Shown here: positions 7,095 to 41,908 of the stretch, piece after piece
Layout: each line of letters opens with the position of its first letter
How positions within the stretch are numbered: position 1 is the first letter of the stretch
Assembly (NCBI GenBank): GCA_964397465.1
Contig: CAYNIC010000002.1
Coordinates: forward strand, 52,162 to 116,161
Direction: 5' to 3'
Source: an uncultured Rhodospirillales bacterium
GTDB taxonomy: Bacteria; Pseudomonadota; Alphaproteobacteria; JAWKYA01
DNA length: 64,000 nt
Made by a program: the position numbers and the translations under genes
The notes under the pieces: generated by a model
What the model saw: the letters and a program-made list of their open reading frames with translations, nothing else
Database searches by the model: none
Told to the model about the DNA's origin: nothing

Positions 7095-8057
7095 ATGGCA
7101 CAGAAAAAACAGCCTTCTCCCAAGAAAAAGAAACAACCGGTGGCGAAGAAAAAACGCCCAGCCCCGATGAAGACGCCGGTAAAGAATCGCGCAAAACCGG
7201 CGGCGAAATCTCGGGGTGCTGTGAAAAAACCGGCTAAGGCGAAAACTGTTGCTAAAAAATCGGGGGCGCCCAAGTCGCGGCCGGTGACAAAATCAACGAA
7301 GTCGGCAAAGCCGGCGCCTCGCCCGGCAAAAACCGGTTCGGCCAAAAAAACACCGACGGCGAAAAAACCGCCGGCGAAGGCGGCACCCGCGAAACAAGCT
7401 GCAAAGGTTGCGCCACCCAAGACAATGCCCAAATCGTCGGCGAAGGTGTCGGGAGGGAAAACAACTCCGACAAAAGCTCCGGCTGTGAAGGCAACACCCG
7501 TTAAGGGGCCGTCCAAAGTGCCGGCTAAACCCTCTGCGGCTTCGAATAAAGGTCCGTCCCCTTTTCGTCCGACTGGCGCGGCAAAACCGGTTATCGTCAA
7601 GAAGCCGATCATTCCCCGCAAGATTCTAGGCAAGCCGGGGCCCGCGATCGTGTTGCCGCCCGATTACGAGCCTGATGAAAAAGAAGAATTCATGAATCCA
7701 CGTCAGCAGGAATTCTTTCGGCAGAAATTGTTAAAGTGGCGCGAAGATGTTTTGAAAGAGTCCGATGAGACGCTGATGGTTTTGCGCGAGGAAAGCTTGC
7801 AGGAATCGGATATGAACGACCGGGCGTCGTTGGAAACCGATCGCTCGATCGAGCTGCGGACGCGCGACCGTCAACGCAAACTCTTGTCAAAGATTGATGA
7901 CGCGTTACGCCGCATTGATGAGGGCGTTTATGGGTATTGTGAAGAAACCGGCGAGCCGATCGGATTGAAGCGGTTGACGGCACGCCCGATTGCGACCCTA
8001 AGCCTTGAAGCGCAAGAGCGCCACGAGCGGATGGAACGGACGCATCGCGAAGATTAA
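7095..8057 (+). CDS. dksA: DksA-family RNA polymerase-binding factor with a long N-terminal Lys/Ala/Pro-rich (histone H1-like) extension
   Basis: The C-terminal ~130 aa align to E. coli DksA (EFMNPRQQEFFRQKLLKWR...SIELRTRDRQRKLLSKIDDALRRIDEGVYGYCEETGEPIGLKRLTARPIATLS). Only one of the four Zn-finger Cys residues is retained. The first ~190 aa are KKPAK/AKP repeats. Confidence 0.75.
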   Translation: MAQKKQPSPKKKKQPVAKKKRPAPMKTPVKNRAKPAAKSRGAVKKPAKAKTVAKKSGAPKSRPVTKSTKSAKPAPRPAKTGSAKKTPTAKKPPAKAAPAKQAAKVAPPKTMPKSSAKVSGGKTTPTKAPAVKATPVKGPSKVPAKPSAASNKGPSPFRPTGAAKPVIVKKPIIPRKILGKPGPAIVLPPDYEPDEKEEFMNPRQQEFFRQKLLKWREDVLKESDETLMVLREESLQESDMNDRASLETDRSIELRTRDRQRKLLSKIDDALRRIDEGVYGYCEETGEPIGLKRLTARPIATLSLEAQERHERMERTHRED

Positions 8058-11384: not shown

Positions 11385-14042
11385 ATGGCGAGCGGCAACG
11401 AGATCCGGTCAACCTTTATTGAATTTTTCCGCAAGAACGGTCACGAGGCCGTGGCCTCGAGCCCTCTTGTGCCGCGGAATGATCCGTCGCTGCTCTTCAC
11501 CAATTCCGGCATGGTGCAGTTCAAGAATGTCTTCACCGGCACCGAACAGCGTCCCTATCGGCGCGCGACCACGGCGCAGAAATGTGTCCGCGCCGGTGGA
11601 AAGCACAATGACTTGGAGAACGTGGGTTACACCGCCCGCCATCATACATTCTTTGAAATGCTGGGGAATTTCTCGTTCGGCGATTATTTCAAACCGGATG
11701 CGATCGAGTTTGCGTGGAGTCTCGTCACTCAGGACTACGGCCTTCCAAAATCGAAACTATGGGTGACGGTTTATAGTGAAGACGAAGAAGCCGCCGGGTT
11801 GTGGAAAAAGATCGCCGGCCTTGGGGACGATCGCATCATCCGGATTTCCACCTCCGACAATTTCTGGCAGATGGGGGATACGGGTCCCTGCGGTCCCTGT
11901 TCGGAAATTTTCTACGACCATGGTGACAAGATTCCCGGGGGTCCTCCGGGGAGTGCGGATGCCGACGGCGACCGCTTCATCGAGATCTGGAATTTGGTGT
12001 TCATGCAATATGAGCAACAGCCGGGCGGCAAACGGATTAGTTTGCCACGGCCGTCGATTGACACCGGCATGGGGCTCGAGCGGATCGCCGCCATCCTGCA
12101 GGGCAAGCACGATAATTATGATACCGATTTACTGCGCTCATTGATTGAGTCATCGGCCGAGCTGACCCGGCAGCATGCCGATGGATCTCATGCGGTCTCG
12201 CACCGGGTGATTGCCGATCATCTTCGCTCCAGTGCGTTTTTGATTGCCGATGGGGTATTGCCGTCGAACGAGGGGCGGGGATATGTCTTGCGCCGCATTA
12301 TGCGTCGCGGGATGCGCCATGCCCATAAGCTTGGAAGCTCTGAGCCGTTAATGTGGCGTTTGGTGCCGAGTCTGGTTCGCATGATGGGTGCCGCCTATCC
12401 GGAGCTGATCCGTGCCGAGGCTTTAATAACCGAGACATTGAAATTGGAGGAAACTCGGTTCCGGCAAACCTTGGAACGTGGGTTAAAATTGCTGGATGAG
12501 GAACTGACCCGTCTGCCTAAGGACAAGGCCTTGGCCGGTGATGTGGCGTTCCGGCTTTATGATACCTACGGTTTTCCCTTGGATTTAACCCAAGACATTC
12601 TCCGCGGACAAAGTCGTGCGGTTGATGTCGCCGGATTTGATGCGGCAATGGCCAAACAGCGTGCCGAGGCGCGGAAGGCCTGGGCCGGTTCGGGCGAGAC
12701 GGCGACGGAAAGTCTGTGGTTCAATCTACGCGAAAAACATGGAGCGACCGAGTTTCTGGGTTATGGAGAGATCGCTGCCGAGGGGAATGTCCTTGCTGTT
12801 ATCAAAGACGGCAAGGAAGTCGCTTCAGCCGGTGCGGGCGATCAGGTGGCGATTATCGTCAACCAGACACCCTTCTACGGCGAGTCCGGTGGACAACAAG
12901 GCGATCAAGGCAGCTTCTTTGCGCCCGGCGGTCTGGAGGTCGCCATCGAAGATACCCAGAAAAAACTGGGTGATCTTTTCATTCACATGGGCAAGGTGGT
13001 TCATGGAACGCTGAAGGCCGGCATGGCGGTAAACATGCGAATCGATGCCGAGCGCAGGGCCGGCTTGCGCGCCCATCATTCGGTTACCCATCTTCTGCAT
13101 GAAGCTTTGCGCCGCCGTCTGGGCGATCACGTGACGCAAAAAGGTTCGCTGGTCGCCGCCGATAGATTGCGGTTCGATTTTTCTCAAGTACGTCCGCTAA
13201 CGGCAGAAGATATTGCTGCCGTTGAGGCGGATGTGAATGCGCGCATTCTTCTAAATGCCGACGTCACCACCCGGCTGATGACACCGGAGGCGGCGGTTGC
13301 CGCCGGCGCTTTGGCGTTGTTCGGCGAGAAGTATGGCGACGAGGTGCGGGTTGTTTCCATGGGCGGCGCTCATGAAAAAAAGAACAATGCTTTTTATTCG
13401 ACCGAACTATGCGGGGGAACTCATGTGACCCGCACCGGCGACATCGGTCTATTCCGCATCATATCGGAAGAAGGCCTTGCTGCCGGGGTGCGCCGAATCG
13501 AAGCGGTGGCAGGGAAGGCAGCGATCGAGTGGACCAAGACGCAGTCCGCCTTGCTGGCCGAGGTGGCGGCAATCATTAAGGCCTCGCCTCAAGACGTGCC
13601 TAGCCGCATCACCGCCTTGCTCGACGAGCGAAAAAAACTGGAGCGGGATCTGGCCGACCTTCGGCGCAAGCTGGCAACCGGCGGCGGTGGAAATGGTGCT
13701 GCCCCGGAAATCCGCACCATCGGCAAGATCAAATATATCGGCCGCGCCTTATCGGAAGTCCCGCCGCGCGAACTAAAGGCGATGGCGGATGACCTCAAGC
13801 GTAAGCTGGGCAGCGGCGGGGTTGTCGCTCTGGCCACCACCACCGAAGGCAAGGCGTCGCTGGTTGTCGGGGTTACCGACGATCTCACGCCCGGCGTCAG
13901 TGCGGTCGAACTCGTCCGGGTCGGCGCCGAGACCTTGGGCGGCAAGGGCGGCGGCGGACGCCCCGATATGGCGCAAGCCGGCGGTCCCAATGTCGCTAAG
14001 ATTGATGCGGCCCTTGAAGCAATCGCCGGCGCTTTGAATTAG
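11385..14042 (+). CDS. alaS: Alanine--tRNA ligase
   Basis: 885 aa. N-terminal class II aaRS motifs ([21 protein letters not shown]), editing domain, and a C-terminal DHHA1-like region. Confidence 0.95.
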
Positions 14043-14051
14043 CAAGGACGG

Positions 14052-15344
14052 TTAATCCGCAAACGGATCGTGCACCAAAATGGTATCGGCCCGTTCGGGA
14101 CTGGTGGAGAGCAGCGCGACGGGCGCACCAATCAATTCTTCAACCCGGCGCACGTATTTAATTGCCGTCGCTGGAAGATCCGCCCAGGATCGCGCACCTT
14201 GGGTGGTTTCTTGCCAGCCCTCGATGGTTTCATAAATGGGTTTCAACTGCGCTTGCTCGTCGATCCCCGCCGGCAGGCGATCCAGTTTCTTTCCGTCGAG
14301 ATCGTAGCCGACGCAGATCTTGATTTCATCCAGACCGTCCAGCACATCAAGTTTGGTTAAGGCGATGCCGTTGATTCCCCCGACCGTAATGGCTTGGCGC
14401 ACCAGAACCGCATCGAACCAGCCGCAGCGGCGTTTGCGTCCGGTCACGACGCCGAACTCGCGACCGCGGGCGCCCAAGCGTTCGCCGATATCATCGGTTA
14501 GCTCGGTCGGAAAGGGGCCCGAACCAACCCGTGTCGTGTAAGCCTTCGTAATACCCAGCACATAACCGATACGCCCCGGTCCAATGCCCGAGCCGGCCGC
14601 GGCTTGGCCGGCAACGGTGTTGGACGAGGTTACGAAAGGGTAGGTGCCGTGGTCAACGTCCAGCAAGGTTCCTTGCGCGCCTTCGAATAGTATGCGTTTC
14701 CCTTGGTGGCGCGCTTCATCCAAGCGTTTCCATACGCAGTCCATAAACGGAAGAAGGCGCGGCGCAATTTCTTGCAACGGCGCAAGAATGGACTCAAGGG
14801 TAAGTTCCTTTTCACCCAGGCCGCGACGCAACGCATTATGATGCGCCAATAAACCTTCGACCCGTTGGCGGAGAACCTTGGGTTGGGCCAGATCGATAAG
14901 ACGCACGGCGCGCCGCGCCACCTTATCTTCATAGGCAGGCCCGATGCCGCGACCGGTCGTGCCGATTTTTCCGGCACCTTGCGCCTGTTCTCGTGCGCGA
15001 TCTAACTCCGGGTGAAGCGGTAAGATAAGGGCTACATTCTCGGCAACGCGCAATTGATCTGGGGTAATCTTGATGCCTTGTTTGGCGATCCCATCAATTT
15101 CCGCCAGCAACGCCCACGGGTCAACCACGACGCCGTTACCGATCAGGGACAGCTTGCCGCCGCGCACCACACCGGAGGGCAACAAACTTAGTTTATAGGT
15201 GACACCATCAATGACCAGAGTGTGGCCGGCATTATGACCGCCTTGGAACCGAACCACCACATCGGCGCGTTCCGATAGCCAGTCGACAAACTTTCCCTTG
15301 CCCTCGTCGCCCCACTGCGAGCCGATCACCGCCACATTGGCCAT
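14052..15344 (-). CDS. purA: Adenylosuccinate synthase
   Basis: 430 aa with [12 protein letters not shown]-loop at the N-terminus and a GNGVVVDP motif. Confidence 0.95.
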
Positions 15345-15362: not shown

Positions 15363-16529
15363 TTAAAGAGGCGTTGGTTTATCGCCCGACAGAATATGGG
15401 TGCAGCCAAGGCGTCGCGCTTCTGCTGTGCTATCCTTGGTTTTCGTCAATCCCATCACCGTTATCCAGCCTTCTTTATGCAAGGCCGCTCTGCGGGCGGG
15501 ATCAGTATCAAGAGGAAGAAAAAGACGTTGTGTCGGCACCGGTGCGGGAAGGGCTCGTAAGATTGAATCCATATATAAGGTGACTCCGCAAGCAGGCTCT
15601 CCTGCGGATTCTTCGGCAATGGAAATAAGATAATCGCCGCCCCGTCCCAGCTCGCCCCGTACGCCGCGCGCGAACAGGGTAAAGGCGATGCCTTGTTCAT
15701 AAGAGAAGCCCCGGCGCTCGACATAATCGACTGTCAAAGTGAGATTGGGCAAAGCGGCCGAAACTTGACGGATGACGTCCTTCAGACGTTGCGCGATAGC
15801 CCGGGCCTGGGCGGGTAACGAAATTTTGTCTAAGGCGGCCAAGGCAGAGGTTACAGGGCCGCAAGCACCGATCAATGCCGCAAGGGTTTTACCATCAGCG
15901 CCGCCAAGCTTGGTGACGGCGTCGATGTCGCGACGATCAAGCGCTTGATACAGGTCGTAGGAAATCTCAGGCCCTTTATTGAGAATAAGTGGCACAAGTC
16001 CGGGCAAGGCGATATCGACGGAAAGACCGGCGACCTTGAGATGCTGCAGAGCCTCGGCTGCCAAGATAATGACCTCGGCATCGGCGGTCGCCGCGTCGAT
16101 GCCGATCAGCTCGGCGCCGACTTGAGCGAACTGCCGTTCCGGCCGAAGCTGCGTGCCCTTAACCCGTAACACTTGGCCGGCGTAGGACAGGCGAAGCGGC
16201 CGGGAGATTTTAGCAAGACGCGTTGCGGCGATTCGGGCCACCTGAACCGTGATGTCGGCGCGAACCCCCATCATACGCTGAGAGACCGGGTCCATTAATC
16301 GAAAGGTTTGCGCCGCCATGGCGGCGCCGGTTCCGGCGAGAAGACCCGTTTCAAACTCAATCAAAGGCGGTTTTACCCGTTCATATCCATAGCTGCGAAA
16401 ACTCGCGACCAAGGTTTCAATCGCGGCGGCTTCCTGTTCCGCCATGGGTGGCAAAACATCGCCCAATCCCGCCGGAAGAAGAGCGGCGGCAGTCGTCGCA
16501 GAATCTGAGTCTTTGGATCTCTGCACCAT
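15363..16529 (-). CDS. hisZ: ATP phosphoribosyltransferase regulatory subunit HisZ (HisRS paralogue)
   Basis: 388 aa. N-terminal LLPAGLGDVLPP, a HisS-like class II core without an anticodon-binding domain, and a typical HisZ length. Confidence 0.75.
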   Translation of the reverse strand: MVQRSKDSDSATTAAALLPAGLGDVLPPMAEQEAAAIETLVASFRSYGYERVKPPLIEFETGLLAGTGAAMAAQTFRLMDPVSQRMMGVRADITVQVARIAATRLAKISRPLRLSYAGQVLRVKGTQLRPERQFAQVGAELIGIDAATADAEVIILAAEALQHLKVAGLSVDIALPGLVPLILNKGPEISYDLYQALDRRDIDAVTKLGGADGKTLAALIGACGPVTSALAALDKISLPAQARAIAQRLKDVIRQVSAALPNLTLTVDYVERRGFSYEQGIAFTLFARGVRGELGRGGDYLISIAEESAGEPACGVTLYMDSILRALPAPVPTQRLFLPLDTDPARRAALHKEGWITVMGLTKTKDSTAEARRLGCTHILSGDKPTPL

Positions 16530-18163
16530 TATTTAGGGTCGCTCGATTTGATCCCTGTGCGAGAGCGCGAGGGTTCGGGTTCAATTTTTACGGGCGGTTT
16601 ATAAGGTTGCGGCGCTGCAGTCGGCTTGTTCGAAGGTAAAGGGGTCCCGGGCCGATCGCTTGTCACGTCGCCCAAGGGTTTCGTCACTTTGGGAGCGGCA
16701 GGCGCAACATAGGCTTCGGGCGAGCGAATGATCGGGGTTCCCGGGGCCGGCGGCGGTGGCGTTTTAGGCAATCCATCTCCCACGGCGACGGTCAGCATCC
16801 CATTTGCCATGAAGGTGACGGCACCATGGCCCTCTTTGTCGTAAAGCGGGTACATTGGCCCGGTAAAAGGCGCAGGGAGAAGCTGCTTGCCAAGATCAAG
16901 AAAATCATCGCCCCACAAGGTGACAATGCGCAGGTTCCGACGATCAAAATCCGGGACCACAATGTCGGGCCGGCCGTCGCCGTTCATATCGACAACGGTG
17001 CCCAAGTCCGGCTCCTGGGTGCCGAAGACATGGTTGCTAAATCCATTGGCCGTGGCTATAGGCACCAAAGCCTCGTCCTGATATCTGAACAAAGTCAGAA
17101 TGCCCACCTCATGAGGCATCATGACCGCGACGACTTCCAATTTTTTGTCGCCGTCGAAATCGGCAAACCCAACCGGATTCATCCAGCGCATCGGCACGCC
17201 CACGGCGGCGCTTTGTGCCAATAACTCCAGCTTGCCGTCGCGCAACCCCAAAATGGCCAAGGCGGAGCCGTAGTCTATAAAAGAACGGACCACGATCACC
17301 TCGTCCCGCCCGTCGCCATCGATGTCGATCAGGCGCGGCATGACATCTTCTATGACCGCTTCGCGATGTTCAAGATAGGTAAAGATCTTGCCGTTACGAT
17401 CCCGTATCTCGACTCCATCCGCTTCAATCCGATCACCCAAGGCGCCGTGACGGTACTGTGCGGTGGGCTGAACCAGGTAGGCGGAGGCAATGTCTTTTTG
17501 TCCATAGGTCACGCGTGATCCTGAAAGAATGGTATATTCGGAAGTTACCGGCTTGGGCGACGGCGGCGACCGTTCTTCTTGAATAAGCTGGGGCGTTCCG
17601 TTGACAAGCTCTAATCGGAAGCTGCGACCTGTTCGGTCTTTGACCAAGGCGGTGCCATCACCTTTAGGCGATAATATATCTACCTGCCCCGGAGCGTTGA
17701 CGGTAATACCCGGAACGTTGACGGTAATGAAGCGGAGCTTACCCTGAGGGACGGTCGGCTTGGCGATCGGCGCCACCTCGCCGGCCACTGGTGCCGTACT
17801 TGCCGGTGCGGCAATGGCGGGTGAAGTTGGCGCTCCTGTCGGCCGCAACGGTGTTGCCGGTGATGCAGGGGTTGTGGTCGGCGTTGCCGGTGCTTCCGGC
17901 TTCGGCGGCGTGAGAACAACACCAGGTGCTGCGCCAGGTGTTGCTGGCCGCGAAGGTGTCGTTGCGGTTGGCGCTTCAGGTTTTGGCGGAGTTAAAACGG
18001 GCGCGGGAGAAGACGGAGAGGTTGCCGGCGGTGGAAAGGGTTTCGGCTCTGCTGAGGGCGCAGAGGATGAAGGTGGTGTCTGAGCAAAACTCATAGAGGT
18101 CAAGCTGACCGCGACGGCGATGGTGATTGCGGTTAAAAAGTATAAGGGGGATAAACGAACCAT
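16529..18163 (-). CDS. Secreted FG-GAP/beta-propeller repeat protein with Pro/Thr/Ala-rich tandem repeats
   Basis: A signal peptide, then a ~120 aa P/T/A-rich linker with VLTPPKPEAP repeats. Four DxDGDGxDE-type Ca-binding FG-GAP-like repeats follow (DIDGDGRDEVIV, FDGDKKLEV, MNGDGRPDIVV). The C-terminus is Pro-rich. Confidence 0.6.
   Translation of the reverse strand: MVRLSPLYFLTAITIAVAVSLTSMSFAQTPPSSSAPSAEPKPFPPPATSPSSPAPVLTPPKPEAPTATTPSRPATPGAAPGVVLTPPKPEAPATPTTTPASPATPLRPTGAPTSPAIAAPASTAPVAGEVAPIAKPTVPQGKLRFITVNVPGITVNAPGQVDILSPKGDGTALVKDRTGRSFRLELVNGTPQLIQEERSPPSPKPVTSEYTILSGSRVTYGQKDIASAYLVQPTAQYRHGALGDRIEADGVEIRDRNGKIFTYLEHREAVIEDVMPRLIDIDGDGRDEVIVVRSFIDYGSALAILGLRDGKLELLAQSAAVGVPMRWMNPVGFADFDGDKKLEVVAVMMPHEVGILTLFRYQDEALVPIATANGFSNHVFGTQEPDLGTVVDMNGDGRPDIVVPDFDRRNLRIVTLWGDDFLDLGKQLLPAPFTGPMYPLYDKEGHGAVTFMANGMLTVAVGDGLPKTPPPPAPGTPIIRSPEAYVAPAAPKVTKPLGDVTSDRPGTPLPSNKPTAAPQPYKPPVKIEPEPSRSRTGIKSSDPK
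17880..18000. repeat. In-frame tandem repeat of about 81 nt inside the FG-GAP gene
   Basis: GGTGCTTCCGGCTTCGGCGGCGTG and GGCGCTTCAGGTTTTGGCGGAGTT are repeated. They encode two copies of VLTPPKPEAP...TP on the minus strand. Confidence 0.5.
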
Positions 18164-19740
18164 CAGAATCGCAATGCCCGCGCTTGGCGAACACCGTTCA
18201 GCGCCTCGATCTGTGAGAGAAGATTTGCTGGGACCGCGTTATCCACGGCTAAAAGGGCGATCGCCGTCCCGCCCTCACGATCACGGCCAAGATGAAAAGT
18301 GGCGATATTCACCCCCGCATTACCTAGCAATGTACCTAAGGCGCCGATCATGCCCGGCTTGTCCGAATTGGTGATATACAGCATATGCGGCGACCATTCT
18401 GCTTCAACGGGAATTCCTTTAATTTCAACCATGCGCGGCTTGTCGCCGCCAAACAATGTTCCCGAGACCGATCTTTCGCCGCGATCTGTCGTGACAACGA
18501 GTTTGATCAGCGTCTGATAGTCGCCCGGCCGGTCGTGCGTCGTCTCGGTAATATCGATATTTCGTTCCCGGGCAATCACCGGGGCGTTAACCATGTTCAC
18601 GGATTCCAAGAGTGGCCCCAAGAGACCCTTCAAGGCAAGGCAAGTTAAAGGTCGTCGATTTAGTTTGCCGACATGTCCTTCATATTCAATGCGCACGGCC
18701 TTCAAGCCGTCGCCGGTCAGTTGCCCCGCAAAACTGCCTAAAAGCTCGGCCAATTTCATATAGGGCCGCAGCTTGGGAGCCTCCTCGGCGGTAACGGACG
18801 GCATATTCACCGCATTGGTGATGGCGCCATGCAGCAGAAAGTCGCTCATCTGCTCGGCAATTTGCAGCGCGACTTTTTCCTGGGCTTCAGTAGTAGATGC
18901 GCCCAAATGCGGTGTGGCGACGATCTTGTCCGATCCGAACAAAGGGTTGTCCTTGGCCGGCTCGACTTCAAACACATCCAGGGCGGCGCCCGCAACCTTG
19001 CCGCCGTCGATGGCCGCTTTAAGATCTTTTTCGACGACAAGTCCGCCCCGTGCGCAGTTGATGATGCGAACGCCGGTTTTCATCTTGGCAATGGCCTTGG
19101 CGTCGATCATGTTCCGGGTGGCGTCAGTCAAAGGCACATGCAGCGTGATAATGTCGGCGCGGTTATAGAGGGTATCAAGATCAACTTTTTCGATTCCCAG
19201 ATCGCGGGCGCGTTCTTCCGACAAAAATGGATCGTACGAAATGACCCGCATCCGGAGACCGATCGCCCGATCGGCGACAATGGCGCCGATATTGCCGCAG
19301 CCGATCAGGCCCAGGGTTTTTCCGGTCAATTCAACCCCCATGAACCGTGTCTTTTCCCATTTGCTGGCCTGGGTCGATGCATTGGCCGCAGGGATTTCCC
19401 GGGCCAGGGCAAACATCAAGGCCAAGGCGTGTTCGGCGGTCGTCACGGAATTTCCCGCCGGCGTATTCATAACAACCACGCCGCGGGCGGTCGCCGCTGG
19501 GACATCCACATTATCGACGCCGATGCCGGCACGGCCGACAACCTGAAGCTGAGGGGCGGCCTCGAAGATATCCTTGGTGACCTTGGTGGCCGAGCGAATC
19601 ACAAGGCCATCGACATGAGCCATTTTTTCCTTCAACGCGTCAGGCTTAAGACCTGTCGCGGTTTCCACGTCAATTCCCCTTGTGCGGAAAATAGCTTCGG
19701 CTTGTGGGCTAAGGCTGTCGGCGATAAGAACCTTCGGCAT
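18163..19740 (-). CDS. serA: D-3-phosphoglycerate dehydrogenase (with C-terminal ACT domain)
   Basis: 525 aa. NAD-binding GLIGCGNIG, a catalytic domain, and ASB/ACT regulatory C-terminal domains. Confidence 0.9.
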   Translation of the reverse strand: MPKVLIADSLSPQAEAIFRTRGIDVETATGLKPDALKEKMAHVDGLVIRSATKVTKDIFEAAPQLQVVGRAGIGVDNVDVPAATARGVVVMNTPAGNSVTTAEHALALMFALAREIPAANASTQASKWEKTRFMGVELTGKTLGLIGCGNIGAIVADRAIGLRMRVISYDPFLSEERARDLGIEKVDLDTLYNRADIITLHVPLTDATRNMIDAKAIAKMKTGVRIINCARGGLVVEKDLKAAIDGGKVAGAALDVFEVEPAKDNPLFGSDKIVATPHLGASTTEAQEKVALQIAEQMSDFLLHGAITNAVNMPSVTAEEAPKLRPYMKLAELLGSFAGQLTGDGLKAVRIEYEGHVGKLNRRPLTCLALKGLLGPLLESVNMVNAPVIARERNIDITETTHDRPGDYQTLIKLVVTTDRGERSVSGTLFGGDKPRMVEIKGIPVEAEWSPHMLYITNSDKPGMIGALGTLLGNAGVNIATFHLGRDREGGTAIALLAVDNAVPANLLSQIEALNGVRQARALRF

Positions 19741-19760: not shown

Positions 19761-20921
19761 CTAAGCGGCGGCTTTATTACGAACGACTTCACCATAGGCC
19801 CACTCCAGCCATGGCATAAGGGCGGCAAGATCCGCCGCATCAACCGTCGCCCCGCACCAAATGCGCAAGCCTGCGGGGGCGTCACGGTAACTGGCAATAT
19901 CAAAGGCAATCTTTTCAGACTCAAGTTTCCCTACCAGATCTTTAACCGCCGCTTGTTGTCCTGCATCATCCAGAGACGTGAACCAAGGTGCGGTAATCTT
20001 GAGGCACACAGAAGTAGGAGAGCGCGTTTTTTCGTCGACGCTTAAAAAATCGATCCAGTCGGTTTTTTTGACCCAGGCATCGATCGTGTTAAAATTGGCG
20101 CTCGTGCGGGCGATCAATCCTTTGAGGCCGCCGATGGACTCAGCCCAGGCCAATCCATCCAAAGCATCGGCGACGCACAGCATCGAGGGCGTATTAATCG
20201 TCTCGCCGCTAAAAATTCCCTCGATTAATTTTCCGCCTTTTGTCAGCCGAAAGATCTTCGGGAGCGGCCACGCCGGTGAATAGGATTGCAGACGCTCGAC
20301 CGCTCGCGGTGAAAGGGCGATCATGCCGTGACCCGCTTCTCCTCCCAAAACTTTTTGCCAGGACCAAGTCACCACGTCGAGTTTATCCCACGGCAAATCC
20401 ATGGCGAAAGCGGCCGAGGTCGCGTCGCAAATCGTTAATCCCTGACGATTTTTTTTGATCCAATTGCCATCAGGAATCCGCACACCGGAGGTCGTTCCAT
20501 TCCAGGTAAAAACAACGTCACGATCGGTGTCGACCTTGGTAAGGTCAGGCAAGTATCCGTAATCGGCTTGATGATTTCTGACATCGGCGAGTTTGAGTTG
20601 CTTCACCACATCGGTGACCCACTCGCCGCCAAAGCTGTCGAAGGCGACCATATCGATGCCGCGGCCGCCAAGAAGAGACCATAAGGCCATTTCGACCGCA
20701 CCGGTATCCGACGCCGGAACGATACCCAAACGGTAATCGGCGGGCATGTTCAGGATCATCTTTGATCGGATGATCACATCATTCAAGGCGGCTTTGCCGG
20801 ACTTAGCGCGGTGGGATCGTCCAAGTACGGCGCTCTTCAGAGAATCCAACGACCATCCCGGCCGCTTGGCGCAGGGACCGGAAGAGAAAAATGGACGGGC
20901 CGGACGAAGCTTCGGCAGCAT
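19761..20921 (-). CDS. serC: Phosphoserine aminotransferase
   Basis: 386 aa. N-terminal RPxxFSSGPC and a class V aminotransferase fold. It sits directly upstream of serA on the same strand. Confidence 0.85.
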
Positions 20922-21065
20922 GGCAGGGCCTTTCGGGGCGCGGCGGGAAACACAGGACGCGGCGATCCTACGAGGCCTATTGCGCCTACGTCAACGAAAG
21001 CGGCGGTGGACAAATCGCCCTAGGTTTCCGGGAAAAAGCTCAAGCGAAACGCCTTTCCCCAAAGG

Positions 21066-21540
21066 TTAACACGTCAGGGTGGCAGTCCCCGCAGAAAGGC
21101 TTGCCCGTGTGCGCATAATAATAGTGCAGCGGTAGTCCATAACCGTTTCGTTCTTGTGATTAAGGGTTTTGCAGATCAGGGTCACGTAACCGCGGTCGGC
21201 CCGGCTGGAAGGGCGGATTTCCAAAATCTCCGCCTCGGCCCGGATCGTATCCCCCCGGACGAACCGGCTTTAACCAACGAAGCTGCTCGAAACCCGGGGA
21301 TCCCATACTGCTGGCGGTAAACTGACGTTCTTGCCACAGCAGGCGAAAGGTTATGGCGAGGGTCTGAAATCCGCTGGCGATTAGCCCGGTATACGGACCT
21401 TTCTCGGCTGCACCTATATCGATATGGAAAGGCTGAGGGTCATAGATAAGGGCAAAATCAATAATGGCCGATTCGGTGAAGGTGTAGCCTCGGCTTTGCC
21501 AAATCTCGCCGACTTTGTAGTCTTCAAAGTATCTATCCAT
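21066..21540 (-). pseudogene. MaoC-like (R)-hydratase/hotdog-fold gene interrupted by a +1 frameshift in a C6 homopolymer
   Basis: The ORF 21160-21540 encodes a MaoC N-terminal half up to ...LRWLKPVRPG. The -1 frame then continues as DTIRAEAEILEIRPSSRADRGYVTLICKTLNHKNETVMDYRCTIIMRT* to 21066. The switch point is the CCCCCC run at 21250-21255. Confidence 0.6.
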
Positions 21541-41747: not shown

Positions 41748-41908
41748 AAAGAGTGCCGCGCCAGCCGTTGACCGTTTCTATCCACTTGGGCCTGCCATAG
41801 CAGGTGGGCGCCATGTACCAAAGCCAAGGCTCTGGCAGGGACAGCTCCCATAGTGTGGAAATTGGCCCCAGGGAATGAGTGGTCTGACGTACTGGGCAGC
41901 ACCAAGAC
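41748..41908 (-). ncRNA. ssrS: Candidate 6S RNA (SsrS)
   Basis: A 174-nt non-coding gap in the conserved zapA-ssrS-ygfA position. In the minus-strand transcript the 5' GUGCUGCC can pair with the 3' GGCGCGGCAC to form a closing stem, as expected for 6S. No ORF. Confidence 0.45.

Follow-up and report, generated by a model that had tools for sequence, protein, structure and literature searches.

The window, by which we mean the whole 64-kb stretch of DNA analysed, carries on its minus strand a compact string of five genes that runs from serC to purA. Its middle gene, between serA and a hisZ-like gene, is here called X, and its product was described in an earlier note as a secreted FG-GAP protein placed among housekeeping genes. 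The genes, their junctions and the one promoter-like element upstream are as follows.

20965-20994, minus strand: sigma-70-like promoter match TTGACG-18-TAGGAT, upstream of serC (consensus scan)
19761-20921, minus strand: serC (phosphoserine transaminase), first gene; NCBIfam NF002841, 672 bits against a 477-bit cutoff
18163-19740, minus strand: serA (D-3-phosphoglycerate dehydrogenase, long form with ACT domain); TIGR01327, 673 bits
18161-18165, minus strand: serA stop TGA and X start ATG, read from the sequence as TGATG with a one-base overlap
16529-18163, minus strand: gene X, FG-GAP propeller protein; 544-aa ORF with ATG start, stop codon included
16527-16531, minus strand: X stop TAA and hisZ start ATG, read from the sequence as TAATG with a one-base overlap
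15363-16529, minus strand: hisZ-like gene (ATP phosphoribosyltransferase regulatory subunit type); Pfam tRNA-synt_His, 5e-77, full model
14052-15344, minus strand: purA (adenylosuccinate synthase), last gene; NF002223, 660 bits

The ORF of X is present exactly as it had been described, on the minus strand and with 544 aa, and profile models identify the neighbours as the serC, serA and purA genes named earlier and a hisZ-like gene, whose best NCBIfam match, hisZ (TIGR00443), has 200.9 bits and so falls under the 271.65-bit cutoff. The hisZ-like product, of 388 aa, has a HisRS-like catalytic core without the anticodon-binding domain, and the serA product matches the Pfam models 2-Hacid_dh, PGDH_inter and ACT. 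The 64-kb window holds no second copy of X, and no riboswitch or leader RNA was found near the string, the only Rfam match being a 6S RNA far off. A search of the literature on the serC/serA/hisZ/purA string yielded nothing relevant. Among genomes that bear a name, the nearest is the MAG "Alphaproteobacteria bacterium BC1.221" (GCA_041396725.1).

X had been reported to abut both of its neighbours exactly, and each junction indeed overlaps by one base, as seen in cgattcTGATGgtt for the serA stop and X start and in cctaaaTAATGgtg for the X stop and hisZ start. The same gene overlaps appear in loci L001-L005; the one-base serA/X overlap was read in L001 (TAATG) and in L005 and L035 (both TGATG), and only L001 and L005 keep the TAATG overlap of X with hisZ; in syntenic loci that are more distant, X and hisZ are separated by 70-110 nt or by other genes. 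No recognisable Shine-Dalgarno sequence precedes X or hisZ (the 15 nt before each start contain no GGAG-like element), which makes it plausible that both are translationally coupled to the genes upstream of them; purA has its own, GAAGGA. The match upstream of serC is the sole sigma-70-like match on the minus strand, and it is weak evidence for a promoter since the number of matches is not above that in shuffled sequence. Within the string, the search for internal promoters and terminators gave no matches above chance, a crude sigma-70 consensus matching less often than in shuffled sequence. Taken with the overlaps and the missing Shine-Dalgarno sequences, the want of a standout internal promoter or terminator makes co-transcription of the string, with coupling by termination and reinitiation, plausible.

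The product of X is divided into a signal-like N-terminus, a proline-rich spacer, a propeller domain and a second proline-rich segment at the C terminus, with the following features.

18080-18163, minus strand: signal-peptide-like N-terminus, residues 1-28, predicted cleavage after SFA (inspection by eye)
17759-18079, minus strand: N-terminal Pro/Ala/Thr-rich spacer, residues 29-135 (31% P, 21% A, 15% T)
17969-17998 and 17888-17917, minus strand: two VLTPPKPEAP motifs, at residues 56 and 83
17687-17728, minus strand: 21-nt/7-aa tandem duplication ITVNVPG/ITVNAPG, residues 146-159 (tandem repeat finder)
16769-17758, minus strand: beta-propeller domain, residues ~136-465
17300-17326, minus strand: putative calcium-blade loop 1, DIDGDGRDE, residues 280-288 (Dx[DN]xDG in 119 of 123 family members)
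17135-17161, minus strand: putative calcium-blade loop 2, DFDGDKKLE, residues 335-343 (Dx[DN]xDG in 96 of 123)
16964-16990, minus strand: putative calcium-blade loop 3, DMNGDGRPD, residues 392-400 (Dx[DN]xDG in 109 of 123)
16532-16768, minus strand: C-terminal Pro/Lys-rich tail, residues 466-544, ending GIKSSDPK (28% P, 10% K)

The N-terminus, MVRLSPLYFLTAITIAVAVSLTSMSFA followed by QT, resembles a Sec signal in having Arg3, a hydrophobic stretch at residues 7-22, modelled as a helix over residues 11-20, and a small -3/-1 pair (S-F-A before Q); it contains no Cys and therefore no lipobox. By inspection of these features, X looks Sec-exported, in agreement with the signal peptide proposed earlier. 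The spacer that follows lacks secondary structure in the full-length model, where its pLDDT stays under 50, and it is absent from the ~300-aa members of the family. The tail likewise drops under a pLDDT of 50 from residue ~484 onward and harbors no further domains; its conservation is limited to the long-form clade, in which the final GIKSSDPK is conserved. The VLTPPKPEAP motifs had been described as tandem repeats, but there are only two copies, and a spacing of 27 residues between them rules out a tandem arrangement; their DNA differs at synonymous sites. The only true tandem repeat, ITVNVPG/ITVNAPG, is specific to the window's sequence, the aligned homologues having one copy or a different insert in this region.

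The propeller domain matches FG-GAP_3 (PF13517) at 2.2e-13 and 51 bits, against a 26.9-bit cutoff, as do 123 of 123 aligned relatives, and FG-GAP (PF01839) at 20.7 bits on full-length X, under the 22.1-bit cutoff, and at 27.1 bits on the core alone. A structure model (pLDDT 91.2, pTM 0.90) has 24 strands, whose order suggests about six blades, and its fold resembles the integrin alpha headpiece beta-propeller. Each of the three loops sits between two model strands; loops 1 (DIDGDG) and 3 (DMNGDG) are exact Dx[DN]xDG motifs, whereas loop 2 (DFDGDK) is imperfect, with K instead of the final G. The description of X as an FG-GAP propeller is borne out by the FG-GAP_3 match, and calcium-blade motifs are present as well; from these motifs, X is predicted to bind Ca2+. 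A Foldseek search of the PDB returned generic propellers only (such as DDB1 and the BBSome, TM 0.3-0.5), and a profile search of PDB sequences gave matches at the level of the calcium motif only. Two other candidates were set aside: PliI, with a sub-cutoff match (E=8e-4) spanning the region around the first calcium-blade loop, and the FusH esterase, below threshold with 17 bits against 999.

X belongs to a large family, which comprises 1,343 clusters at 90% identity and 1,139 representatives at 50% identity (E<=1e-30). The family profile was built from a core-only alignment, a full-length alignment being swamped by matches to proline-rich words. Among the best 150 of the 1,139 representatives, lengths range from 233 to 442 aa, one member of the long-form clade excepted, and a hydrophobic N-terminal stretch occurs in 114 of 122 members. 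From their sequences, nearly all members appear to be stand-alone proteins of ~300 aa with predicted signal peptides, and the family may be regarded as a large group of periplasmic propellers that stand on their own. Their distribution is patchy across alpha-, beta- and gamma-proteobacteria, culturable carriers being found in Sedimenticola selenatireducens, Variovorax sp. and Aurantimonas, among others. An alignment of 123 sequences averages 31% column identity and contains a set of invariant or near-invariant polar residues, namely, T234, Y237, H239, E272, D273, R277, R326, W327, H351, N377, H378 and R408 in X numbering, which may indicate a single defined site for ligand binding or catalysis. 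No NCBIfam model matches the family, and its Pfam matches are to generic FG-GAP repeats only. Those members that have names are called "VCBS repeat-containing" or "FG-GAP repeat domain-containing" by NCBI and UniRef; these generic labels cover thousands of unrelated multirepeat adhesins, whereas the X family is a tight, single-domain group of ~300 aa. Being coherent and devoid of a curated model, the family merits an entry of its own in Pfam or NCBIfam, and it is a reasonable subject for a structure-function study.

The comparison with relatives bears on whether X interrupts a pair of genes that are normally adjacent. In relatives, serA often adjoins hisZ with no insert, and in other genomes the interval holds X or other genes. 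Of 80 metagenomic hisZ loci, serA lies directly upstream in 12, X in 7 and another insert in 10; these other inserts are an opposite-strand PqiA-family gene, TPR and cyclase-TPR proteins, a fasciclin protein and a trypsin-like peptidase. The serA-hisZ interval is thus a variable slot, which may be empty or filled by X, by an opposite-strand pqiA-like gene or by others. The arrangement serC-serA-X-…-hisZ-purA recurs in L028, L035, L037, L048, L053, L057 and L060, where serA is 63-71% identical and the serA-X gap measures -1 to 23 nt. An equivalent gene does occupy the same position in several genomes, and in none of them does it have an annotated function. Elsewhere, the family is found in quite different company: phaA-phaB-X-EamA, with a 4-nt overlap of X and EamA, aroC-ribBA-X, uvrD-small protein-X, copA-X, glgX-X and DsbD_N-redoxin-X. 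Clustering of the neighbours in 80 genomes revealed no universal operon partner, the partners being lineage-specific.

We favor, as the probable explanation, that X is an exported calcium-blade propeller carried as a passenger of housekeeping operons, with no metabolic role, and that the overlaps mark the fusion of two units. X would be a Sec-exported protein of the cell envelope, composed of an FG-GAP propeller of ~330 residues with calcium blades and, in the window's clade, disordered proline-rich flanks, and it would play no part in the synthesis of serine, histidine or purines. We propose that the family has repeatedly settled downstream of constitutively expressed housekeeping operons in different lineages, its home in the Rhodospirillales-type group being the position immediately after serA. 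The genes that in other genomes come between serC-serA-X and hisZ-purA appear to be missing from the window's clade, where the two units would have merged into a single compact string whose stop and start codons overlap by 1 nt. Ribosomes that have finished serA would then most likely reinitiate on X, and those that have finished X would reinitiate on hisZ. As a case of operon evolution, the window's clade would thus document the passage from two units to one overlapping string.

A different view of the protein itself is that the propeller is a periplasmic enzyme or a metal-site protein and not a passive binding scaffold, acting either by beta-elimination or hydrolysis of envelope glycans through His, Tyr and Arg or through a His-ligated Cu or Zn site. 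The (near-)invariance of T, Y, three H, E, D, R, W and N across the 123 sequences speaks for it, and most of these residues would lie, judging from the strand order, in the D-A and B-C loops, on the face opposite the calcium loops. Moreover, X is located 0-11 nt downstream of the gene for a CopA-type Cu ATPase in three loci. Among propeller lyases, the PL22 enzymes coordinate Mn through three His residues, and those of PL24/25 rely on His, Tyr and Arg on seven-bladed propellers; similarity of X to the solved propeller lyases (PL11, PL22 and PL24/25) was not found beyond the calcium motif. Overall, we consider an enzymatic or metal-binding role unlikely, although it retains an appreciable chance. 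An extension of this idea, which strikes us as rather improbable, is that the family constitutes a periplasmic enzyme or receptor that is widespread among proteobacteria but has gone unrecognised, and that its placement behind serA, ribBA and phaB has been selected. If so, one face of the propeller would carry an active site made up of the invariant residues (His, Tyr, Arg, Trp, Asn and Glu/Asp), and the coupled placement would keep a housekeeping function of the envelope in step with growth.

The overlaps might instead exist to enforce co-expression of X with flanking pathways to which it is functionally tied, for example as a sensor in the envelope or an uptake component for serine, histidine or purines, or as a factor whose stoichiometry relative to SerA or HisZ is important. 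The serA-X junction does remain tight across Rhodospirillales-type genomes, and three lineages of the window's clade have kept both overlaps; that serA-X persists at a serA identity of only 63-71% could be due to selection for co-expression and not to neutral hitch-hiking. However, most family members reside in unrelated contexts (phaB, ribBA, uvrD/rep, copA, glgX, redoxin and DUF genes), serA adjoins hisZ without X in many relatives, and opposite-strand genes break the X-hisZ link in several syntenic genomes. In addition, an exported protein could not touch SerA or HisZ, which are cytoplasmic. The functional connection of X with amino acid and purine biosynthesis that the overlaps had seemed to imply is therefore very unlikely, and with it a false lead is removed: here, stop/start overlaps with amino acid and purine genes imply no shared function, and our findings on X alter the understanding of no pathway.

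We also judge it extremely unlikely that X is mobile cargo that was recently inserted by horizontal transfer into an intact serA-hisZ junction. The frequency of direct serA-hisZ adjacency in relatives, the patchy spread of the family and the rise of G+C content and GC skew over the proline-rich part could be read in this way. Yet X follows serA in genomes as distant as those with 63-71% serA identity, the G+C content of the propeller part equals that of the neighbours, no integrase, tRNA or flanking repeats were found near X, and the shift over the proline-rich part is explained by its Pro and Ala codons.

Finally, the public gene calls for the identical sequence (NCBI, JGI and Logan) give a model of 419 aa that starts at residue 126, accompanied by an 89-aa antisense ORF over the proline-rich part, according to which X would be a cytoplasmic protein devoid of a signal peptide and the upstream region noncoding or antisense; this is hardly credible, given that homologs with 72-75% identity keep the full ORF open with in-frame indels only and that dN/dS amounts to 0.16 in the N-terminal proline-rich spacer, against 0.03 in the core and 0.10-0.16 in the C-terminal tail. 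Full-length homologs of 549-565 aa exist, as does one Logan call of 546 aa, the signal-like N-terminus M-x-R-L…FAQT is conserved, and in the ~300-aa relatives a hydrophobic N-terminus immediately precedes the propeller. On this comparative evidence, the 544-aa model is the right one, the 419-aa model being truncated and the antisense ORF spurious, and the annotation of X should be corrected from 419 aa and cytoplasmic to 544 aa and exported, as predicted.

Several known systems resemble X in part. Proline-rich spacers that span the periplasm are known from TonB, and X recalls its (Glu-Pro)n/(Lys-Pro)n spacer by its composition, its PKPEAP-type motifs and the extended disorder of the model. In contrast to TonB, X lacks the TonB C-terminal domain as well as any transmembrane anchor other than the signal peptide, which looks cleavable, and its spacers flank the propeller on both sides and are confined to the window's clade. 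The integrin alpha-subunit propeller (PF01839, PF13517) shares 10-14% sequence identity with X and has seven blades, whereas the 24 model strands of X suggest six. X also lacks the thigh, calf and transmembrane parts of integrin alpha and ends instead in a disordered Pro/Lys-rich tail of ~80 residues; unlike integrin alpha, it is a stand-alone bacterial protein of predicted periplasmic location, and the family residues PTxxYxH, VFED..PR, RWxNP, TPH and SNH lie outside the FG-GAP consensus. An integrin alpha subunit proper was therefore rejected for X, as about six blades, the absence of thigh and calf domains and the lack of a C-terminal transmembrane helix do not fit. Calcium-blade propellers are defined by Dx[DN]xDG loops (Rigden et al. 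2011, PMC3123361), with PilY1, the Bacillus subtilis rhamnogalacturonan lyase YesW/PL11 and the Psathyrella lectin as examples (PMC3123361). These three differ from X in size, blade number and function, show no detectable homology to it outside the motif and were not among its top structural matches; a PL11 lyase gave a weak sequence match, over the calcium motif. What they have in common with the predicted form of X is that all three are extracytoplasmic propellers with integrin-like Dx[DN]xDG loops at the blade tips.

Five consecutive open reading frames on the minus strand of the window follow the order serC, serA, X, hisZ-like gene and purA, X being the gene for a predicted exported FG-GAP propeller protein.

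Genes of the string in the window
19761-20921, minus strand: serC (profile search, NF002841, 672 bits)
18163-19740, minus strand: serA (profile search, TIGR01327, 673 bits)
16529-18163, minus strand: X, 544-aa ORF (Pfam FG-GAP_3 repeat, 2.2e-13, above the gathering score)
15363-16529, minus strand: hisZ-like gene (Pfam tRNA-synt_His, end-to-end coverage; best NCBIfam match TIGR00443 (hisZ), below the trusted cutoff)
14052-15344, minus strand: purA (profile search, NF002223, 660 bits)

The one-base overlap of X with each neighbor, claimed in an earlier note, was borne out when the junction sequences, cgattcTGATGgtt and cctaaaTAATGgtg, were read. Upstream of serC (20994-20965) lies a promoter-like match, the sole one for the minus strand, and no terminator-like site within the string rose above the level of shuffled sequence. 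The 15 nt before the ATG of X and of hisZ hold no Shine-Dalgarno-like element, whereas purA is preceded by GAAGGA and serA by a weak GATAGG, a difference that would be consistent with termination-reinitiation as the mode of translation for both X and hisZ. Upstream of serC, a MaoC-like dehydratase gene (ORF 21160-21540, minus strand) carries a run of six G at ∼21251-21256, against five G in L001 and in L006, a contig that matches the window with 100% identity in its SerC, SerA, X, and HisZ proteins. The six-G run shifts the frame and yields a product of 126 aa with an aberrant tail versus 157 aa, a form likewise present in the homologous locus L007; the cause is either an assembly error in the homopolymer or a frameshift specific to the strain. 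Elsewhere, a 6S/SsrS RNA gene at 41749-41905 (minus strand) matches the full Rfam model RF00013 with 79.5 bits, the only Rfam match above the gathering score within the window.

Public pipelines annotate X as a 419-aa protein starting at residue 126, together with an 89-aa antisense ORF across the Pro-rich part, which would leave X without its signal peptide and without its serA overlap. We rejected this model and consider that the long 544-aa model is the correct one, because the whole frame is open in homologs at 72-75% identity (549-565 aa), with indels in-frame and the N terminus M-x-R-L…F-A-Q-T conserved, because identical one-base overlaps are called in the contigs of these homologs, and because dN/dS against L001 comes to 0.16 for both the Pro-rich N-terminal part and the C-terminal tail and to 0.03 for the core. 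The antisense gene call (window 17760-18083, plus strand; L006 7706-7975, minus strand) is a shadow ORF, a product of GC-rich Pro/Ala codons.

By inspection, residues 1 to 28 look like a Sec signal peptide, as the earlier note had proposed: Arg3, a hydrophobic core, and S-F-A|Q are present, without cysteine, and the assignment remains a prediction made by eye. The flanks of the protein are rich in proline (residues 29-135, Pro 31%, Ala 21%, Thr 15%; residues 466-544, Pro 28%, Lys 10%), and both lack secondary structure in the structure model (pLDDT < 50). The VLTPPKPEAP element, described earlier as a tandem repeat, occurs in two nonadjacent copies, at residues 56 and 83; only a 21-nt duplication, which codes for ITVNVPG/ITVNAPG, forms a genuine tandem repeat. 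The middle of the protein (∼136-465), modeled from an alignment of 123 sequences, is an all-beta domain of 24 strands (pLDDT 91.2, pTM 0.90), from which strand count we infer six four-stranded blades. Calcium-blade loops of the Dx[DN]xDG type (PMC3123361) occur three times in the model, in consecutive blades and in each case between the first and second strands.

Calcium-blade loops of X
Residue 280: DIDGDG
Residue 335: DFDGDK, imperfect
Residue 392: DMNGDG

The core defines a large family: a core-only profile gathered 1,343 clusters at 90% identity, and an exhaustive HMM search of 1.84 billion representatives returned 1,139 at E ≤ 1e-30 and 2,961 at E ≤ 1e-10. Since the 150 best-scoring representatives measure 233 to 442 aa except P0007 (530 aa), which represents the window's own long-form clade, the Pro-rich flanks are a clade-specific addition. 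Family members that bear any name are called "VCBS repeat-containing protein," "FG-GAP repeat domain-containing protein," or "hypothetical protein"; NCBIfam holds no model matching X, and Pfam gives generic repeat models only. An N-terminal hydrophobic stretch is found in 114 of 122 members. In an alignment of 123 sequences with a mean column identity of 31%, the calcium-blade sites match the motif, in loop order, in 119, 96, and 109 sequences, and T234, Y237, H239, V270, E272, D273, P276, R277, R326, W327, P350, H351, N377, and H378 are invariant or nearly so. By strand order, most invariant residues would lie in the D-A and B-C loops, which would include E272/D273, R326/W327, H351, N377/H378, and R408. 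Loops of these kinds lie, in a propeller of standard topology, on the face opposite the A-B loops, and the invariant face of X is thus probably opposite the A-B calcium loops. The family is best read as having a conserved face for specific binding or for catalysis. That X is an enzyme or a metal/ligand-site protein is a reasonable secondary hypothesis, favored by the invariant His, Tyr, Arg, Trp, and Asn residues.

Relatives of the core were found in 254 genomes of alpha-, beta-, and gammaproteobacteria, with one genome sampled per species. The order serC-serA-X-…-hisZ-purA is shared, within the best 80 loci, by the window's clade and by Rhodospirillales-type genomes whose SerA is only 63-71% identical (L028, L035 [Inquilinaceae], L037, L048 and L060 [Pelagibius], L053, and L057); the serA-X gap is -1 to 23 nt in all of them, and the distance from X to hisZ runs from 70-110 nt up to 3.5 kb. 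A second scan, of hisZ loci in metagenomes, found hisZ and purA almost always together. Among the informative loci, serA lies directly upstream of hisZ in 12 (gap of 57-430 nt, no intervening gene), X occupies the slot in 7, another insert does so in 10, and serA is absent within 2.5-6 kb upstream in ∼27. The adjacency of serA and hisZ in relatives without X, raised in the earlier note, thus exists alongside loci with X in the slot, which makes the interval a variable slot within a conserved backbone. One metagenomic contig (L133 4716-7074) shows an unusual backbone variant, in which serC immediately precedes hisZ and no serA was detected in between. The other inserts were rejected as diverged X genes by the family HMM; they are mostly an opposite-strand gene for a PqiA-family membrane protein, the remainder encoding a TPR protein, a cyclase-TPR protein, a fasciclin protein, or a trypsin-like peptidase. 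The PqiA-family gene, absent from the window, is the commonest alternative occupant of the interval in related genomes.

Small PqiA-family membrane protein genes (Pfam PF04403, 82-90 bits)
L048 7922-8617, minus strand
L114 5194-5766, minus strand
L134 3595-4329, minus strand
L166 3623-4153, minus strand

In genomes with an opposite-strand gene in the interval, of which Pelagibius L048 is one, X is clearly part of the serC-serA unit, and hisZ-purA form a unit of their own; in the window's clade intervening genes are lacking, and both units form one overlapping string. At the opposite end of the string, purA and the plus-strand alaS (11385-14042) are convergent, with ∼9 nt between their stop codons (window 14042-14052). 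This interval is a second variable slot: in relatives it holds an extra small gene, of the Anthrone_oxy family in L001-L004 and MarR-like in L005.

Gene order in other contexts comes from a crude gene caller based on GC by codon position, and representatives were checked against Pfam and NCBIfam.

Gene contexts of the family elsewhere
Marine Rhodospirillales: thiolase - acetoacetyl-CoA reductase-type SDR - X - EamA transporter
Rhizobiaceae and Aurantimonas: aroC - ribBA - X - deacetylase - xseB
Hyphomicrobiaceae: DsbD_N protein - redoxin - X - M19 dipeptidase
Sedimenticola: CBS protein - DUF2835 - X - WD40 protein
Variovorax: uvrD/rep - small secreted protein - X, amt on the opposite strand
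Three genomes (L011 5223-6713, L030 4298-6760, L038 82-2208): CopA-type ATPase - X
Accumulibacter: glgX - X
Other loci: DUF427 or DUF924 - X

In the marine Rhodospirillales loci L014, L015, L017, L018, L021, and L024 (∼7744-7888), the X homolog overlaps the start of the EamA-family transporter gene by 4 nt, which would be a further example of tight coupling to unrelated genes. A codirectional gene ends ≤60 nt upstream of X in 33 of ∼64 loci with both genes called, and the contexts examined share no common functional partner of X; what they have in common is that X rides as a passenger downstream of genes that are unrelated to one another and mostly of the housekeeping kind. In the three genomes with a CopA-type neighbor, the X homolog starts 0-11 nt after the end of the gene for a CopA-type copper P-type ATPase (TIGR01511, 597 bits, in L038), and this occasional neighborhood, with the three invariant histidines, gives a weak hint of a metal-related role.

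Taken together, X is best read as a predicted exported calcium-blade FG-GAP propeller of a large, uncharacterized family, whose expression would ride on that of the serC-serA operon, an operon probably continuous with hisZ-purA in the window's clade. The combination that puzzled the earlier note is real, but operon architecture would explain it instead of a link with Ser, His, or purine synthesis. The finding reveals no new mechanism; its value lies mainly in annotation: the gene model is corrected, a family can be defined, and the synteny shows a variable slot.

Compared with known systems, X shows no detectable relationship to the propeller-fold lyases, and it is not an integrin alpha subunit, from which it differs in lacking further domains and probably in blade number. 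Its repeats place it in the FG-GAP/VCBS superfamily and, at the motif level, among the calcium-blade propellers: X adds a new and unstudied protein to a known kind, and its Pro-rich flanks are specific to its clade.
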